In this document: piece by piece, positions 9,807-55,388 of the stretch
Position numbering within the stretch: the first letter of the stretch is position 1
How the letters are laid out: each line of letters starts with the position of its first letter
Sequence record: MN895435.1
Origin: Escherichia phage teqhal
Strand: one strand, 5' to 3'
Length of the DNA: 64,000 nt
Translations under genes and position numbers: made by a program
The notes under the pieces: model-generated
Databases searched by the model: none
What the model was told of the DNA's origin: nothing
Seen by the model: the letters and a program-made list of their open reading frames with translations, nothing else

Positions 9807-9871
9807 AAAAGTTGTTTACAGGACTGTTCTTCCGTGGTACTATTACCCTATCAACTACGGAGGAACAGAAA

Positions 9872-9985
9872 ATGAAAAAGATTGTTAAAGCTATATGGAA
9901 TGTAGTTATAATACTAATAGTTTTGAGTATATTCCCAATCGTTTTAATGATTGATATGTTAAACGCTTATTTTGGATTTATGTGA
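9872..9985 (+). CDS. small membrane peptide, 37 aa
   Basis: GGAGGAACAGAAAATG RBS; one transmembrane helix (track ORF 9737 extends upstream without an RBS). Confidence 0.35.
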   Translation: MKKIVKAIWNVVIILIVLSIFPIVLMIDMLNAYFGFM

Positions 9986-12903: not shown

Positions 12904-12929
12904 GGGAGAGCCGAGGCTCTCCCTTTTTT
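12904..12929 (+). terminator. rho-independent terminator
   Basis: gggagagc-cgag-gctctccc hairpin followed by TTTTTT. Confidence 0.7.
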
Positions 12930-12955
12930 ATTTCAAAAATTTTTTCATAAAACGG

Positions 12956-12984
12956 TTTACAACCAAAGCATACTGTGGTACTAT
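12956..12984 (+). promoter_or_regulatory. early promoter upstream of motA
   Basis: -35 TTTACA, 17 bp spacer, TG-extended -10 TGGTACTAT; followed by conserved leader AACTATCAACTACTGATACAGAA. Confidence 0.55.
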
Positions 12985-13025
12985 ACAACTATCAACTACT
13001 GATACAGAATTACGGAGATTAGAAA

Positions 13026-16442: not shown

Positions 16443-17228
16443 TTATACTCTTGAACCATATATTGTACCAACCTTAGTCCAAGTTGGAGCATTACCAGTA
16501 ACAGCTTTACCGGCCGCGCCGCCGTTATATTCTGATCCTTGCCCACGAATATTACATTTACCACCTGCGGCACCAGCATCACCGCCATTCCCGCCATTAT
16601 AGATACCATTGACAGACCCTTTACCAGGTGCAGAAATAGTACCAGCAGTAGCGCCCTGTTCCATATTAGCAGACCCGCCAGCAGCACCAAATGGACGACC
16701 GCCGCCACCGCCAAAAGTCAATTTCATTTGTGAAAAAGGAGAATAATATCCGCCTCCACCGCCGCCACCGCCTCCTGCGATAACACCATTGTTGTTAATA
16801 CGCAATCTAGTTCCAATTCCATTATTTATTGCAGTTCCTCCTGCTCCACCGGCAGAGTTATTTCCGCCATTCCCGCCACGGCCCCAAACATGCACTCCTG
16901 AATTGATATTAAGTGTCACGTATGCATTAGTTAATGAGCTAGGAAAATCTAAGCATGGAACACCAGTAGATTGAGAAACAATATTTCCTGTAATAGTAAT
17001 AACAACAGGAGTACTGCCTTGGGCTTTTATCCAGTTTATTAATGTATCTTTATTATAAGAATTACTAGCACCAATGCTATAATATACTTCTTTAGATTGT
17101 CCGGCCATTGAGCTCATCCAACCGGGAACTGAAACACGGACTGCTCTCATTGCAGCATCCATCCAACGTTGTCCAGTTTCATTCACGGCAGATTCACCAA
17201 TCCAGCCAGGAACACCTACAATTGCCAT
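16443..17228 (-). CDS. 38: gp38 receptor-recognising tail-fibre adhesin, T2 type
   Basis: 261 aa; C-terminal half has several glycine-rich runs (GGGGGGGGGYY, FGGGGGRPFGAAGG, NGGNGGDAGAAGG) separated by variable segments; downstream of gene 37. Confidence 0.8.
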   Translation of the reverse strand: MAIVGVPGWIGESAVNETGQRWMDAAMRAVRVSVPGWMSSMAGQSKEVYYSIGASNSYNKDTLINWIKAQGSTPVVITITGNIVSQSTGVPCLDFPSSLTNAYVTLNINSGVHVWGRGGNGGNNSAGGAGGTAINNGIGTRLRINNNGVIAGGGGGGGGGYYSPFSQMKLTFGGGGGRPFGAAGGSANMEQGATAGTISAPGKGSVNGIYNGGNGGDAGAAGGKCNIRGQGSEYNGGAAGKAVTGNAPTWTKVGTIYGSRV

Positions 17229-30067: not shown

Positions 30068-30092
30068 GGGGACCTCTAGGGTCCCTTTTTTT
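30068..30092 (+). terminator. rho-independent terminator after gene 32
   Basis: ggggacc-tcta-gggtccc hairpin followed by TTTTTTT. Confidence 0.7.
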
Positions 30093-30118
30093 ATTTCAAA
30101 AATTTTTTCACAAAATGG

Positions 30119-30147
30119 TTTACATCCTTGTCCTTCCATGGTACTAT
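30119..30147 (+). promoter_or_regulatory. early promoter
   Basis: -35 TTTACA, 17 bp spacer, TG-extended -10 TGGTACTAT, A/T-rich UP-like sequence. Confidence 0.55.
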
Positions 30148-30190
30148 ACAACTATCGGCAATACTGCTGATGATTAAAGAGGAAAATAAT

Positions 30191-37596: not shown

Positions 37597-39184
<1,588 letters not shown>

Positions 39185-39187
39185 GCT

Positions 39188-39242
39188 GTTTACAAGTCCC
39201 TCATGTTGTGTTACAGTAGTCTTACTGACATAACATGAGGAC
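39188..39242 (+). promoter_or_regulatory. promoter-plus-hairpin cassette, copy 1, upstream of alc
   Basis: GTTTACA -35 then imperfect hairpin cctcatgtt...aacatgagg enclosing a -10-like TACAGTAGT; right arm contains the GAGGA Shine-Dalgarno; near-identical copy at 55009..55062. Confidence 0.5.
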
Positions 39243-39248
39243 TTTATG

Positions 39249-39752
39249 ATGGATTTACAGCTTATTACTACTGAAATGGTCGTTGAAGCATACGGTGATA
39301 CTACAGATGGGATTTCTGTATTCAAAGGAAATCGTCGAGTTGGATATATCACCGATCTTAAGAAAGATTTAGCTAAGCAAGTCAAGCGGAAAACGACCAT
39401 TAAAGAATATCGAAATCGTCGTCTTGAGCAAGCCCGTGATATGCTTCCTGATGCGGTTGGGGAGATGAAAGTCTTTTTAGAAAATCAACTCGCTAAGTAT
39501 GATTGTGAAGTGTTCATTAATCAGACTCAACCTAATGTTCATATTAACAACTGTAAATGCTATATCATCGTTAATCCTTTGACGGGAAAACATCGTCTTG
39601 GAATTAGTAATCCAAATCGTAGTGCATCGGATATGGCAGAAGATGTTGAGGCATGCTTTAAAATTTCTAAATCTCCAGCTGAACATCATATTTTAATTAA
39701 CGGTCTTTCTCAAGACGATATTATAGAGGTTATTAAAACTTTATGCAATTAA
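39249..39752 (+). CDS. alc: Alc (blocks elongation of host transcription on cytosine DNA)
   Basis: 167 aa from second Met, the T4 Alc length; position between rnlA and pseT cluster. Confidence 0.65.
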   Translation: MDLQLITTEMVVEAYGDTTDGISVFKGNRRVGYITDLKKDLAKQVKRKTTIKEYRNRRLEQARDMLPDAVGEMKVFLENQLAKYDCEVFINQTQPNVHINNCKCYIIVNPLTGKHRLGISNPNRSASDMAEDVEACFKISKSPAEHHILINGLSQDDIIEVIKTLCN

Positions 39753-46027: not shown

Positions 46028-46052
46028 ATTTTCCAAAGATTGCACAAAGTTG

Positions 46053-46081
46053 TTTACAGTATGGTTCCTTTGTGATAGTAT
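46053..46081 (+). promoter_or_regulatory. early promoter
   Basis: -35 TTTACA, 17 bp spacer, TG-extended -10 TGATAGTAT; followed by AAGGAGAATAAAATG leader. Confidence 0.5.
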
Positions 46082-46108
46082 TATCTTACACAAACAAAGG
46101 AGAATAAA

Positions 46109-46441
46109 ATGAAAACGATTAATCTGAACGCTACAGTTAAAACTAAATGCTTCAACGGTAAATATGATGAAACTATGTGGTTCTTAATGGCAGTTGAAGG
46201 TGATATTATTGAAGTAGAAACAACAGAAGGTATGGGAACAGATTTCACCTTTACAATTCAAGTTCATAATTTCTTTACTGGTTGGATTTATGAATTGAAT
46301 ACAGTAATCGTTGGAAAAATTGAACAAAATGAATTAGGCGAATGGCATTATGTTACAGCTCGCCAACGTGCCGAACGCTTAATTGAGAAGATGAAAAAAG
46401 TTGGTAAACTTGACATGCAGCATTGGAAAGTAGTAAAATAA
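46109..46441 (+). CDS. hypothetical protein, 110 aa
   Basis: ORF with conserved leader. Confidence 0.5.
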   Translation: MKTINLNATVKTKCFNGKYDETMWFLMAVEGDIIEVETTEGMGTDFTFTIQVHNFFTGWIYELNTVIVGKIEQNELGEWHYVTARQRAERLIEKMKKVGKLDMQHWKVVK

Positions 46442-50818: not shown

Positions 50819-50854
50819 AATTTTATAAATAGAATAAACACTAGAGAGGATATG

Positions 50855-52948
50855 ATGGAACTCATTACAGAATTATTTGACGAAGATACTACTCTTCCGA
50901 TTACAAACTTAAATCCAAAGAAGAAAATACCACAAATTTTTTCAGTTCACGTTGATGATGCAATTGAACAACCAGGCTTTCGTTTATGTACCTATACATC
51001 TGGAGGTGATACTAATCGCGATTTAAAGATGGGCGATAAAATGATGCATATTGTTCCTTTTACATTAACTGCTAAAGGTTCAATTGCTAAATTGAAAGGT
51101 CTTGGTCCAAGCCCAATTAATTATATCAATTCAGTTTTTACTGTTGCAATGCAAACAATGCGTCAGTATAAAATTGATGCCTGTATGCTCCGTATTCTTA
51201 AGTCTAAAACTGCTGGTCAAGCTCGACAAATTCAAGTTATTGCTGATAGACTTATCCGTAGTCGTTCAGGTGGAAGATACGTCCTTCTTAAGGAACTCTG
51301 GGATTATGATAAAAAGTATGCATATATTCTTATACATCGCAAAAATGTATCACTAGAAGACATTCCAGGAGTTCCGGAAATTAGTACCGAGCTCTTTACT
51401 AAGGTTGAATCGAAGGTCGGTGATGTTTATATCAATAAAGATACTGGAGCTCAAGTAACTAAAAATGAGGCAATTGCAGCATCTATTGCACAAGAAAATG
51501 ATAAACGTTCTGACCAAGCTGTAATCGTTAAAGTTAAAATTTCCCGTAGAGCAATTGCACAAAGTCAGTCATTGGAATCTTCTAGATTTGAAAGTGAATT
51601 ATTCCAGAAGTATGAATCTACCGCAGCTAATTTCAATAAACCTGCTACTGCTCCTTTAATTCCCGAAGCAGAAGAAATGAAGCTTGGAATTAATTCATTA
51701 GCTTCTAAAACTAAGGCAGCAAAAATTATTGCCGAAGGAACTGCGAATGAACTTCACTATGACTATAAATTCTTTTCAAAAAGTGAGGTTAATGAAGTTT
51801 CCGAAAAAATTAAAGATGTAATTCTTAATGCGATCAAAAATGAACCAACTACTTCAATAAAATGTTTAGAGAAATACGCAGCAGCTGTCAATCAATTCTT
51901 TGAAAAATATAAAGATAATTGGCTTGATAAACATAATAAAACTCGTAAAGGGCAGCCAGATGAAGTCTGGGAAGAAATAACTAAAAATTCCTGGAACGCA
52001 GCAAAAACTAAATTCCTCAAACGAATGATTTATAGTTTTTCTGGAATTGGTGCAGGCCCAATGATTGATATTACTATTGCCCGCGATGGTTCTAAATATA
52101 CTCCATCACAAAAGCGTGGCATTAGAGAATATTGCGGTTCAGGATATACTGACATCAATAATCTTCTTTTAGGTCGTTACAATCCAGAACGATATGATGT
52201 AATGAGTGAAAAAGAAATTGAATCTGCTATAAATAATTTAGATTCAGCTTTTGAAAATGGTGACCGTATACCAGAAGGCATTACAGTTTATCGTGCTCAA
52301 AGCATGACTGCTCCTATATACGAAGCACTAGTTAAAAATAAAGTGTTCTATTTCAGAAATTTTGTATCTACTTCTTTAACTCCTATCATTTTTGGACGTT
52401 TTGGAATTACACATGCTGGTATTGGTCTTTTAGAACCAGAAGCTCGTAACGAATTAACGGTTGATAAAAATGAAGAAGGAATAACTATTAATCCAAACGA
52501 AATAAGAGCGTATAAAGAAAATCCTGAATACGTTAAAGTTCAAATAGGATGGGCAATTGATGGAGCTCATAAAGTTAATGTTGTATATCCAGGAAGTCTC
52601 GGAATAGCAACAGAAGCTGAAGTTATTCTACCGCGCGGATTGATGGTTAAAGTTAATAAAATAACTGATGCTTCTAATAATGACGGAACCACGTCTAATA
52701 ATACAAAACTCATTCAAGCTGAAGTTATGACCACAGAAGAACTCACCGAATCGGTAATCTATGACGGAGACCATTTAATGGAAACCGGCGAAGTAGTTGC
52801 AATGACAGGTGATATTGAAATAGAAGACAGAGTTGACTTTGCATCATTTGTTTCATCAAATGTTAAACAGAAAGTAGAATCATCTCTTGGAATTATTGCG
52901 TCTTGCATAGATATTACAAACATGCCTTACAAGTTCGTTCAAGGATAA
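50855..52948 (+). CDS. Alt-family ADP-ribosyltransferase, paralog 1
   Basis: 697 aa; candidate R-S-E motifs (VYRAQ, FVSTSL, EAEVILPRG); N-terminal MELITELFDE leader; N- and C-termini near-identical to the downstream paralog. Confidence 0.8.
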   Translation: MELITELFDEDTTLPITNLNPKKKIPQIFSVHVDDAIEQPGFRLCTYTSGGDTNRDLKMGDKMMHIVPFTLTAKGSIAKLKGLGPSPINYINSVFTVAMQTMRQYKIDACMLRILKSKTAGQARQIQVIADRLIRSRSGGRYVLLKELWDYDKKYAYILIHRKNVSLEDIPGVPEISTELFTKVESKVGDVYINKDTGAQVTKNEAIAASIAQENDKRSDQAVIVKVKISRRAIAQSQSLESSRFESELFQKYESTAANFNKPATAPLIPEAEEMKLGINSLASKTKAAKIIAEGTANELHYDYKFFSKSEVNEVSEKIKDVILNAIKNEPTTSIKCLEKYAAAVNQFFEKYKDNWLDKHNKTRKGQPDEVWEEITKNSWNAAKTKFLKRMIYSFSGIGAGPMIDITIARDGSKYTPSQKRGIREYCGSGYTDINNLLLGRYNPERYDVMSEKEIESAINNLDSAFENGDRIPEGITVYRAQSMTAPIYEALVKNKVFYFRNFVSTSLTPIIFGRFGITHAGIGLLEPEARNELTVDKNEEGITINPNEIRAYKENPEYVKVQIGWAIDGAHKVNVVYPGSLGIATEAEVILPRGLMVKVNKITDASNNDGTTSNNTKLIQAEVMTTEELTESVIYDGDHLMETGEVVAMTGDIEIEDRVDFASFVSSNVKQKVESSLGIIASCIDITNMPYKFVQG

Positions 52949-52951
52949 ATC

Positions 52952-55009
52952 ATGGAACTTATTACAGAATTATTTGACGGCGCTTCGGCGCCGGTTGTTA
53001 ACTTAAATCCTAAGCATAAAATACCACAAATTTTTGCTATTCAAGCCGGCGAAGAAAGTGTGCTTCCTGGATTTAGATTTTGTACATACACCTCTGGCGG
53101 TGATACAAATAAAAACGTTAAGCCAGGCGATAAAATGATGCATATCGTAATGATAGGCGTCAACGAGAAATTATCGCTGGTTAAGCTTAGAAACTTGGGT
53201 GGAAATCCAATTGGCGTCATTAATGCGGTTTTTGATACTGCTCTTCAAACAATGAAGCAGTATAAAATCGACGCATGCTTATTCCGCGTACTAAAAAGTA
53301 AAACAAATGGCGCAGCTCGTCAAATGCAAGTTATTGCTGACCGTTTAGTACGTACTAAAGGAGCAGGTCGATATGTTCTTTTAAAGGAAATCTGGGATTA
53401 TGATAAAAAGTACGCATATATTATGGTTTACCGTAAAAATGCCAAATTAGAAGACATTCCAGGTGTACCTCCTATTTCAACTGAGTTATTCACAAAAGTT
53501 GAATCAAAGGTTGGTGATGTTTATGTAGACGTTAAAACAGGTAATGCTGTTCCTAAAGCTGTTGCTGTTGCTGCTTCTATTGCTTTAGAAAATGATAAGC
53601 GCACGGATCAAGCTGTTATTCAGAAAACTAAAATTAGTCGTCGATTAGCAGCGCAAGCTCAATATTCTACTGTTGATGCTTCACTTCAGGGTGATAGCTT
53701 CGCTGCTAAGAAATATCAAGAGTTTGAATCTAAAGTTCCGGTATATAAAGCAGAAGGACCAATGAACTCTGGCGTTATTCAGATTGGTTCAAACTTTAGC
53801 AAAGGAGCTATCGGTGGTATGAGAAGTGCTTCTCGTTTTAAATCTAGCGATTATGAACTAGAAAGTTTCCGAAATCATATTGCATTAGCCCATGCACGTT
53901 TACGTGATCCATCTATCAAGTTGCAGAGCGATATAACATATCAAGGTTCTCAAGAATATTTAAAGAATAAAGAATTCTTTGATTATAAAACTGATAAAAT
54001 TTTAAGCGATCTTGCTGATATTAATATTTCTAATAGCTTTGATGTTATTAAGAAAATTATCAATGATTTGGTTAAAGGTTCTAAAGCTACGCCAGATGAA
54101 AAGACAGCTATTATTCAATTTGTCATGAATGGCATTTATAAATTGATTAATGAATCTGCTGCTCAGGCATATGAATACGCAAGCACTGAAGTAACTCCAA
54201 AAGGACTGACTCAGGCTGAGTCTGATGTAATTGAAGATTATTGTGCAGATTCATATGTTGAAATGAACTCGTTCCTTTTGGGTAAACCAGATTCTACCCG
54301 TGAAGAATATATGGAACGAGCTATTAAGCACATTGAGACGTTGGATTCTGCATTCGCTAAAGGTTCAGTTCTTCCTCCAGGAACTACGCTTTATCGTGGA
54401 CAAGAAGTTACCTTTAAAACTTTGCGTCATAACATTGAAAACAAAATGTTCTATTTCAAGAACTTCGTATCGACATCGCTTAAACCAAATATCTTCGGTG
54501 AGCATGGTAAAAACTATATGGCTCTAGATGATTCCGGTGCAGTATTTTCTGGCGAAGGAGAAGGTTCTGTTGATGCAGAAGATTTAATGCATATGGGTAG
54601 TCATTCTGCATATGCTAATGAAGATGCTGAAACTAGCGTAGGTATGGTAATTAAAGGGGCTGAGCGAATCAAAGTTATCGTTCCAGGTCATTTATCAGGA
54701 TTTCCATCAGAAGCTGAAGTTATTCTACCACGTGGAATTTTGTTAAAGATTAATAAAGTAAGCACGTACATGATGAAAGAAACTGCTTATAACAAGTATC
54801 TAATCGAAGGCACAATCGTTCCTCCTTCTGACCAATTAGAAGAATCAGTATATGATGGCGACCATTTAATGGAAACTGGTGAAGTTCGTCCAATGGCTGG
54901 ATTTAATCAATTCCTTGTAGAAGAATCAAAAGAAGAGGAAAACGAAGTTTCTCAAATCTTGGCTTCTTTGGTTAACATCAACGGAATGTCTAAAAAGTTC
55001 AAAATGTAG
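52952..55009 (+). CDS. alt: Alt-family ADP-ribosyltransferase, paralog 2 (685 aa, closest in size to T4 Alt)
   Basis: 685 aa; candidate R-S-E motifs (LYRGQ, FVSTSL, EAEVILPRG); shared MELITELFDG leader; which paralog is the T4 alt orthologue is uncertain. Confidence 0.7.
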   Translation: MELITELFDGASAPVVNLNPKHKIPQIFAIQAGEESVLPGFRFCTYTSGGDTNKNVKPGDKMMHIVMIGVNEKLSLVKLRNLGGNPIGVINAVFDTALQTMKQYKIDACLFRVLKSKTNGAARQMQVIADRLVRTKGAGRYVLLKEIWDYDKKYAYIMVYRKNAKLEDIPGVPPISTELFTKVESKVGDVYVDVKTGNAVPKAVAVAASIALENDKRTDQAVIQKTKISRRLAAQAQYSTVDASLQGDSFAAKKYQEFESKVPVYKAEGPMNSGVIQIGSNFSKGAIGGMRSASRFKSSDYELESFRNHIALAHARLRDPSIKLQSDITYQGSQEYLKNKEFFDYKTDKILSDLADINISNSFDVIKKIINDLVKGSKATPDEKTAIIQFVMNGIYKLINESAAQAYEYASTEVTPKGLTQAESDVIEDYCADSYVEMNSFLLGKPDSTREEYMERAIKHIETLDSAFAKGSVLPPGTTLYRGQEVTFKTLRHNIENKMFYFKNFVSTSLKPNIFGEHGKNYMALDDSGAVFSGEGEGSVDAEDLMHMGSHSAYANEDAETSVGMVIKGAERIKVIVPGHLSGFPSEAEVILPRGILLKINKVSTYMMKETAYNKYLIEGTIVPPSDQLEESVYDGDHLMETGEVRPMAGFNQFLVEESKEEENEVSQILASLVNINGMSKKFKM

Positions 55010-55062
55010 TTTACAAGTTCCTTATGTTGTGTTATAGTAGTCTTACTGACATAACATGAGGA
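55009..55062 (+). promoter_or_regulatory. promoter-plus-hairpin cassette, copy 2
   Basis: Near-identical to 39188..39242: GTTTACA then hairpin ccttatgtt...aacatgagg with the SD in the right arm. Confidence 0.5.
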
Positions 55063-55069
55063 ACACAAA

Positions 55070-55360
55070 ATGAAATCTTCTTTGCGCTTTTTAGGTCAAG
55101 AACTTGTAGTTGAAGGCGTTATTCCTGCTGATAACGCTTTTAATGAAGCAGTTTACGATGAATTTATTAAAATTTTTGGAACAGATAAAAAGTTCGGAAT
55201 TTTTCCTTCTGAAAATTTTTCAAAGTCAGAACAGACTGAAAGTATTTTTCAGGGTGTAGTAACAGGTAAATTTGAGTCAGAAGCTCCGGTAAAAATTGAA
55301 GTTTATATTGAAGACAGTTTAGTTGCTTCAGTTGCTGCTTTCATTTCATTCCGTAAATAA
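55070..55360 (+). CDS. hypothetical protein, 96 aa
   Basis: ORF downstream of the cassette; followed by a hairpin shared with convergent gene 54. Confidence 0.5.
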   Translation: MKSSLRFLGQELVVEGVIPADNAFNEAVYDEFIKIFGTDKKFGIFPSENFSKSEQTESIFQGVVTGKFESEAPVKIEVYIEDSLVASVAAFISFRK

Positions 55361-55365
55361 AAATA

Positions 55366-55385
55366 TGGGGACCGAAAGGTCCCCA
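55366..55385. terminator. hairpin between convergent genes (55070 ORF on +, gene 54 on -)
   Basis: tggggacc-gaaa-ggtcccca GNRA-loop hairpin in the 28 bp gap between convergent stop codons. Confidence 0.55.
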
Positions 55386-55388
55386 TTG

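Follow-up and report, generated by a model that had tools for sequence, protein, structure and literature searches.

Among the elements described in T4-like phages, the published class that comes closest to the repeat reported here is the PeSL (promoter-early stem-loop), a cassette that has been proposed as a means of modular shuffling in these phages, the T4/PST pair among them (Arbiol et al. 2010, PMC2839356; Comeau et al. 2014, PMC4122927). As summarized in those papers, PeSLs are repeated intergenic elements that join a strong early promoter to a stem-loop and finish with the Shine-Dalgarno sequence and the start codon of the gene that follows, and their copies recombine, all of which they have in common with our element (here called the cassette). 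Their stem-loops are read there as terminators or attenuators rather than as masks of a ribosome-binding site (RBS), and for PST their reported position is directly upstream of the promoter. The stem of the cassette, in contrast, spans from the promoter spacer to the Shine-Dalgarno sequence, is A/U-rich and is followed by no U tract. The settings differ as well, as PeSLs are described as marking indels among ORFans, whereas the cassette occupies two fixed syntenic loci, one of them beside the core-like gene alc. A further relative is found at the IP locus of T-even phages, where elements combining T4-type early promoters with weaker A/T-rich stem-loops have been proposed to guide recombination within T-even genomes (Repoila et al. 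1994, via PMC2839356); these lie at a different locus from the cassette, and the description of them in PMC2839356 does not report RBS masking.

Masking of this kind is known from a second group of T4 genes. In e (lysozyme), soc, 49, and I-TevI, the Shine-Dalgarno sequence and/or the AUG is taken up in a helix when the transcript is long, and a promoter located within the 5' arm or directly after it yields a shorter mRNA that is free of this arm and is translated (PMC3014915). The cassette resembles these genes, in silico, in that its longer transcripts pair the Shine-Dalgarno sequence while the transcript of the proximal promoter is without the 5' arm. In e, soc, 49, and I-TevI, however, a late inner promoter is combined with the masking of early or middle RNA, whereas in the cassette the inner promoter is early, with no TATAAATA, and the masked RNA is delayed-early (from rnlA) or late (from alt). 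A gate built on the cassette would restrict translation to the earliest period, whereas the e/soc/49/I-TevI type delays it. Finally, the cassette shares with generic T4 early promoters (Hinton 2010, PMC2988021) the -35 GTTTAC, the 17-nt spacer, the TGn and the -10 TAnnnT, but identity between its copies runs on through the leader to the Shine-Dalgarno sequence, and the repeat is without the A/T-rich UP element. The cassette is an example of known phage regulatory designs and not a new kind of system.

Two copies of an early promoter cassette

The stretch of DNA analyzed here (the window) comprises 64,000 nucleotides of Escherichia phage teqhal (MN895435.1), a Tequatrovirus (T4-like) genome in which the plus strand is the direction of early transcription. 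A repeat search of the window returned a 54-nt family with two plus-strand copies, at 39188-39241 (copy 1) and 55009-55062 (copy 2), that are 94% identical. The original prediction had placed a near-identical element at 39188 and 55009, and this was borne out: the copies match at 51/54 positions, and a degenerate consensus with three wildcard positions had exactly 2 matches in the window and 0 in 100 dinucleotide-preserving shuffles. The length of 55 given at that time has to be reduced to 54 nt, as base 39242 is a C and its equivalent in copy 2 is an A. The differences between the copies fall at cassette positions 11, 15, and 27. Both copies are also present in the T4 genome, where they are 53/54 identical to each other.

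Copy 1 lies between rnlA (RNA ligase 1/gene 63; 38024..39184, plus strand), whose stop codon ends at 39184, and alc, the inhibitor of host transcription (39249..39752, plus strand; Pfam PF17527, E=1e-90). The alc open reading frame was listed from an ATG at 39246, and the T4 annotation uses the second ATG (39249). Copy 2 follows two tandem full-length alt (ADP-ribosyltransferase) paralogs at 50852-52948 and 52952-55009, which are 68-94% identical in nucleotide sequence over their repeated stretches, and it starts on the G that closes the TAG stop of the second paralog; T4 has only the remnants alt.-1 and alt.-2 of this second gene. Downstream of copy 2 is alt.-3 (55070..55360, plus strand; 96 aa; DUF5498, E=2e-63), so the prediction that the copies precede alc and a 96-aa frame at 55070 was correct. 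A bidirectional terminator, the G+C-rich hairpin ATGGGGACCGAAAGGTCCCCAT at 55365-55386, separates alt.-3 from the convergent gene 54. T4 can escape CmdTAC defense through C-terminal extensions of Alt.-3, but not through deletion of the gene (PMC11618068).

Each copy contains a promoter on the plus strand. That of copy 1 (39189..39217) has its -35 TTTACA at 39189-39194, TGn at 39209-39211 and -10 TACAGT at 39212-39217, with a 17-nt spacer; that of copy 2 (55010..55038) has its -35 TTTACA at 55010-55015, a 17-nt spacer with TGn and its -10 TATAGT at 55033-55038. The T4-typical G precedes TTTACA in both copies, and the consensus scores are 9/12 for copy 1 and 10/12 for copy 2, with the TG present in both. 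T4 early promoters in general are of the UP/-35/TGn/-10 type (Hinton 2010, PMC2988021), and the early-promoter consensus of the T4/PST pair is given as TTTACW-N17-TAYWAT (PMC4122927), which both cassette promoters fit. Judged by their motifs, they are sigma-70-type T4 early promoters. From the usual spacing of about 7 nt we infer starts near A39224 (copy 1) and near A55045 (copy 2); a mapped start for the alc or the alt.-3 promoter was not found in the Hinton 2010 review, the DksA paper or the T4 omics paper. The repeat ends at the -35 in both copies. Upstream of copy 1, A/T richness is absent from the 19 nt abutting the -35 but is seen in a more distant run, at 39140-39168, while the sequence upstream of copy 2 is moderately A/T-rich.

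Two T4 early promoters will always be somewhat alike, so we compared the pair against the other early promoters of the window. The comparison set consisted of the 14 GTTTAC-N17-TAnnnT sites on the plus strand, aligned at the -35. Over 54 nt, their median pairwise identity was 25/54 and the next-best pair reached 43/54, against 51/54 for the alc and alt.-3 promoters, which are thus far more alike than two T4 early promoters need be. We also observed a looser family of repeated early promoters in the window, whose members have an A/T-rich UP region and GTTTACA, with a short hairpin in the spacer and GGTACTATACAACTATC. Its pairs include 9298 and 12955 (43/54 identical) and 12921-12993 and 30084-30156 (84% over 73 nt), and it looks like a set of T-even PeSL analogues.

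The hairpin in read-through and promoter-proximal RNA

Folding of both copies, which had been suggested as a check on the original prediction, agreed with its description of a promoter-plus-hairpin cassette in which the right arm of the hairpin contains a GAGGA Shine-Dalgarno sequence. In read-through RNA, copy 1 is predicted to form a hairpin at 39194..39244 (plus strand) of -26.1 kcal/mol (z -6.07) with GAGGA at 39237-39241 fully paired, and copy 2 a hairpin at 55017..55064 (plus strand) of -25.7 kcal/mol (z -6.32) with GAGGA at 55058-55062 fully paired. For both copies, 0/200 shuffles folded as stably as the full cassette. In copy 1, an outer stem pairs 39194-39199 and 39201-39211 with 39228-39244, and an inner stem pairs 39214-39218 with 39223-39227. 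GAGGA stands at the 3' end of the right arm, while the left arm of the main 15-bp stem, 39198-39211 in copy 1, lies in the spacer that separates the -35 from the -10. Owing to several G-U pairs, the sense RNA exceeds the complementary strand in stability by 4-10 kcal/mol. Neither a DNA cruciform nor an antisense RNA is favored by this difference, and the strand asymmetry points to a predicted structure in sense-strand RNA over a DNA cruciform. At the gathering score, an Rfam 15 scan of the whole window gave 0 matches.

RNA that enters the cassettes from upstream would be expected at both copies, since our scan found no terminator-like site on the plus strand between rnlA or the alt genes and the cassettes, and since a late-promoter motif precedes alt. 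This motif, TATAAATA, is at 50824-50831, 21 nt before the first alt ATG, and together with the two tandem paralogs (50824..55009, plus strand) it would be the source of late read-through RNA into copy 2; rnlA would be the source of that into copy 1. In T4, alt is a late gene (PMC9697503) and Rnl1 is delayed-early (PMC3014915). A second site of this type, TATAAAAA at 39155-39162, was observed in the 3' end of rnlA, 26 nt before the cassette; it differs from the T4 late-promoter motif by one mismatch, and its counterpart in phage ASO78A carries a promoter annotation. We considered whether this ASO78A feature was the cassette and rejected it, as the feature is the late-promoter-like TATAAAAA inside rnlA. 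Should TATAAAAA be active, RNA started from it would include the complete hairpin and be masked.

The left arm lies upstream of the predicted start, so the mRNA made from the cassette's own promoter would be without it and its RBS would be open. We compared 64-nt RNAs of the full cassette with 52-nt RNAs from the predicted start, and the latter folded at only -3.2 (alc) and -3.0 (alt.-3) kcal/mol, with z of -0.6 and +1.0. Accessibility was computed on RNAs that begin either 200 nt upstream or at the predicted start and run 60 nt past the AUG. In read-through RNA, the probability that the Shine-Dalgarno sequence is unpaired was 0.01 (alc) and 0.00 (alt.-3), and opening the stretch from Shine-Dalgarno sequence to AUG cost 14.7 (alc) and 14.5 (alt.-3) kcal/mol. 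In the cassette's own transcript, the corresponding values were 0.81 (alc) and 0.16 (alt.-3), and 5.2 (alc) and 4.2 (alt.-3) kcal/mol; in alt.-3, GAGGA still pairs weakly with a nearby UCUUC of the coding region, which accounts for the probability of 0.16, although the opening cost is low. The hairpin is thus predicted to discriminate between transcripts, with RNA from the own promoter open and RNA from upstream masked.

The original prediction had the cassette couple the start of transcription to sequestration of the RBS. In such a scheme, the cassette's own transcript would carry the hairpin, and initiation would yield a closed RBS that is opened by a later event. The position of the Shine-Dalgarno sequence within the right arm would suit it, as would TATAAAAA with its promoter annotation in ASO78A, since a transcript from there, if the site is active, holds the whole hairpin. 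We nevertheless give this scheme hardly any credence, because the left arm lies downstream of the -35 and upstream of the -10, and is left out by any start up to about 10 nt downstream of the -10. RNA that starts at 39221-39227 or 55042-55048 has no significant structure, and its RBS opens for only 4-5 kcal/mol. This part of the prediction did not hold, as the cassette's own RNA (from about 39224) folds at about -3 kcal/mol, and sequestration is predicted to apply only to RNA read in from upstream.

The same hairpin could instead serve the unit upstream of it. In this explanation, the cassette is a PeSL in the published sense, whose stem-loop terminates or attenuates transcription or stabilizes the 3' ends of rnlA and alt RNA and so insulates the next gene, with RBS masking as a side effect. 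A strong hairpin such as that of the cassette would be suitable, and many 3' ends of T4 RNA are believed to mark the limits of stable RNA and not sites of termination (PMC6024815). Moreover, the account of Arbiol 2010 (PMC2839356) includes a PeSL stem-loop that, when set in front of lacZ, lowered expression to about the same extent as rrnB T1, and PeSL stem-loops that lie between or overlap the -35 and the -10. However, no U tract follows either copy (GGACUUUAUGAUG and GGAACACAAAAUG), and both were missed by the terminator scan. An intrinsic (rho-independent) terminator, with tails CUUUAUGAUG and ACACAAAAUG, was rejected at the sequence level for the same lack. The stems of the cassette are A/U-rich with G-U pairs, unlike the G/C-rich PeSL stems of RB49 and phi1, and a pure terminator needs no right arm that ends exactly on a Shine-Dalgarno sequence, yet this is found at four independent promoters. 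We therefore regard service to the upstream unit as unlikely, although it deserves to be kept in view, and prefer to read the hairpin as a mask of the RBS in read-through RNA.

The recurrence of the design can be seen when the extra cost of opening the RBS in read-through RNA is computed for all 14 promoters of the window. Four stand apart: the promoter at 9814 (+14.0 kcal/mol), the cassettes at 39188 (+13.4 kcal/mol) and 55009 (+11.6 kcal/mol) and the promoter at 46052, before 30.8 (+7.6 kcal/mol), while the other ten range from -1.8 to +4.4 kcal/mol. At 9814-9874, the spacer pairs with the Shine-Dalgarno sequence of the next gene in a 15-bp stem of -22.7 kcal/mol, and at 46052-46111 a spacer pairs in the same manner (-12.1 kcal/mol); both sequences are unrelated to the cassette. 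At the alc promoter of Dhakavirus IME08, the spacer again pairs with the Shine-Dalgarno sequence (-17.6 kcal/mol).

Variation, distribution, and concerted evolution

Covariation between paired bases had been part of the original argument for selection on RNA structure. Only one of the three differences between the copies was then placed in the stem, where it would pair as C-G in copy 1 and as a U-G wobble in copy 2. All three are in fact at pairing positions of the predicted copy 1 hairpin, and position 27 is unpaired in the minimum-energy fold of copy 2. The C/U difference is position 3 of the -10 hexamer, and this site is better read as a promoter variant. Across 21 distinct cassette copies, we found 0 two-sided compensatory base-pair changes, and shuffles reached the observed covariation values in 433/500 cases. 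Six pairs vary on one side yet stay paired through wobble, against two that are disrupted in part of the copies; by a binomial estimate, this is not significantly above chance for transitions. In 4/21 distinct copies, G29A disrupts the inner stem with no compensating change, and it turns the -10 into a perfect TATAAT. This alignment is too shallow for conservation of the structure to be claimed from covariation, and the argument from covariation has to be withdrawn. Because covariation within the cassette is uninformative, the independent recurrence of the design is the best evidence that the pairing is functional.

These data bear on whether the hairpin is a passenger without function, the copies being alike only through a promoter overwrite and homogenizing recombination. 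The absence of compensatory covariation is what a passenger would show, and orthologous copies vary about as much as their flanks (2/54 differences against about 97-98% flank identity). The small patches of homology that T4 recombination needs, less than 50 bp as cited in PMC2839356, would also allow such homogenization. On the other hand, a 15-bp stem between spacer and Shine-Dalgarno sequence with z of about -6 is very improbable by chance, as the shuffles indicate, and unrelated sequences at 9814, at 46052 and at the Dhakavirus alc promoter have the same design. In addition, positions 41-53 of the right arm are invariant in 34/34 copies and position 54 is changed in one. A passenger hairpin is accordingly a poor explanation in our judgment, and a functional pairing in read-through RNA remains the reading that we carry forward.

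As had been proposed for other T4-like genomes, we searched for the element more widely and found the cassette at alc and alt.-3 only. In the phage collection (distant mode), the 54-mer matches 499 phage records at 997 places, all in Tequatrovirus-like phages, with two copies per record that are always at these two loci; the sole exception is a 13-kb partial record. No third locus or other context was found in the 499 phage records, 8 IMG/VR loci and 8 metagenome loci. PeSLs as described belong to hyperplastic regions beside indels or ORFan swaps, with shuffling; the flanks of the cassette are the same in the 499 records and the 16 loci.

Outside Tequatrovirus, both loci retain an early promoter, though of differing kinds. 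In Dhakavirus IME08, a homolog of the cassette is present at alc alone, while the alt.-3 promoters of Mosigvirus AV115, Dhakavirus IME08, and Gaprivervirus VR25 have GTTTACAA, a short CAC...GTG spacer hairpin and then ACATGAGGA. The presence of the Dhakavirus cassette at alc only, together with the different alt.-3 promoters elsewhere, indicates that the alc version is ancestral and was the donor. The limits of identity between the copies coincide with sequences that both promoters already had in common, GTTTACAA and ACATGAGGA. In VR25, we also observed an additional 77-aa frame (16752-16985) between rnlA and alc that is annotated as an inhibitor of host transcription and looks like a partial alc duplicate; VR25 alc has no early promoter immediately upstream.

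To compare the paralogous copies, we used 17 genomes (13 isolates including the window and 4 metagenomic). No position shows a fixed difference between the two loci, and positions 16, 29, 32, and 34 are polymorphic at both. The mean distance between paralogs is 1.7/54 within a genome and 2.33 between genomes, and orthologs stand at 1.99 and 2.49 (permutation P = 0.0012). Certain variants are shared by the two copies of a single genome, as in MLP2 (the private C34A plus G32A), PP01 (TATAATAAT), and RB51 (A16). Judged from these sequences, the pattern indicates concerted evolution by short-tract gene conversion. Conversion tracts would be confined to the 54 nt, because the flanks differ immediately outside, and homology patches shorter than 50 bp are cited as sufficient for T4 recombination (PMC2839356). 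Variation is confined to positions 9-40 (spacer, -10, and loop), save for the one copy altered at position 54, and the invariant positions 41-53 (17 genome pairs) are the transcribed leader including the Shine-Dalgarno sequence. In phage 4E10 only, the copy at the alc locus has a one-base insertion (GTTCCCTCG) that makes the spacer 18 nt instead of 17, which could be a sequencing error or a weakened promoter.

Such exchange raises the question of whether the main role of the cassette is in DNA recombination, as a linker of the PeSL type through which mini-circles form or modules are shuffled. The PeSL model as presented in the literature (PMC2839356, PMC4122927) would provide for this, gene conversion between the copies is evident, and the alt paralog beside copy 2 is variable, as the alt.-1 and alt.-2 remnants in T4 attest. 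Both flanks are nevertheless syntenic in about 500 genomes, with no third locus or hybrid junction, and the cassette is not an endpoint of the T4 deletion that left alt.-1 and alt.-2. A crossover of the direct repeats would, moreover, remove the essential genes 30 and 31. We consider a primary role in recombination very improbable. The idea of a portable module that might be shuffled by recombination can be kept in a reduced form: the element was apparently copied once between loci, in an ancient transfer, and conversion from copy to copy seems to be ongoing, but it is confined to two loci whose flanks have stayed syntenic.

A proposed promoter-specific translational gate

Taken together, these results lead us to favor, with moderate confidence, a reading in which an early promoter set within a hairpin acts as a promoter-specific translational gate, the alc version of which is ancestral, was copied to alt.-3 and has been kept alike by gene conversion. 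A polymerase starting near 39224 or 55045 would make an mRNA that begins inside the hairpin and is without its left arm. The GAGGA of alc or alt.-3 would then be free, and translation could begin immediately after infection. RNA arriving from upstream, in delayed-early rnlA transcripts for alc and in late TATAAATA transcripts for alt.-3, would hold both arms and fold into a hairpin of about -26 kcal/mol that masks the RBS. Synthesis of Alc and Alt.-3 would thereby be tied to the short period in which early promoters fire. With respect to its origin, the alc version would have replaced an older alt.-3 promoter in the Tequatrovirus ancestor, probably by exchange between the shared micro-homologies GTTTACAA (at the -35) and ACATGAGGA (at the Shine-Dalgarno sequence), and short-tract gene conversion since then would have kept both copies alike.

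Our results establish the sequence anatomy, the fold energies, the restriction to two loci and the pattern of variation; we infer the differential translation and its purpose, with which published timing data are compatible. Early promoters are shut off within a few minutes (PMC3014915), and in time-resolved omics of T4, alc and alt.-3 are classed as "early RNA, early protein" and rnlA as "early RNA, late protein" (PMC9697503). These classes fit a gate that confines translation of alc and alt.-3 to the period of early-promoter firing. The upstream transcripts of alc are also pre-replicative, so the benefit of gating is less obvious there than for alt.-3.

A bolder proposal would be that some T-even early promoters (here the alc and alt.-3 promoters together with the ones at 9814 and 46052) make up a regulatory class of their own, as yet undescribed, in which the spacer doubles as an anti-Shine-Dalgarno arm. 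Each gene would be translated only from its own immediate-early transcript and be silent on all read-through RNA, and one 54-bp gate would have been transplanted over 16 kb and kept in step by short-tract gene conversion. We put this forward tentatively and think it doubtful in its full extent. If it is true, Alc and Alt.-3 would be a co-regulated pair.

If the gate works as we propose, it would explain how Alc, which shuts off host transcription, and Alt.-3 are confined to the first minutes of infection despite later transcripts that run through both genes, and it would extend the "promoter inside a hairpin" logic of lysozyme and soc from late to early genes. For phage engineering, inserting or deleting genes upstream of the cassettes should leave downstream expression unchanged, whereas mutation of a promoter spacer might alter it. 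The two copies also offer a small, clean natural case of the concerted evolution of a regulatory element in a lytic phage.
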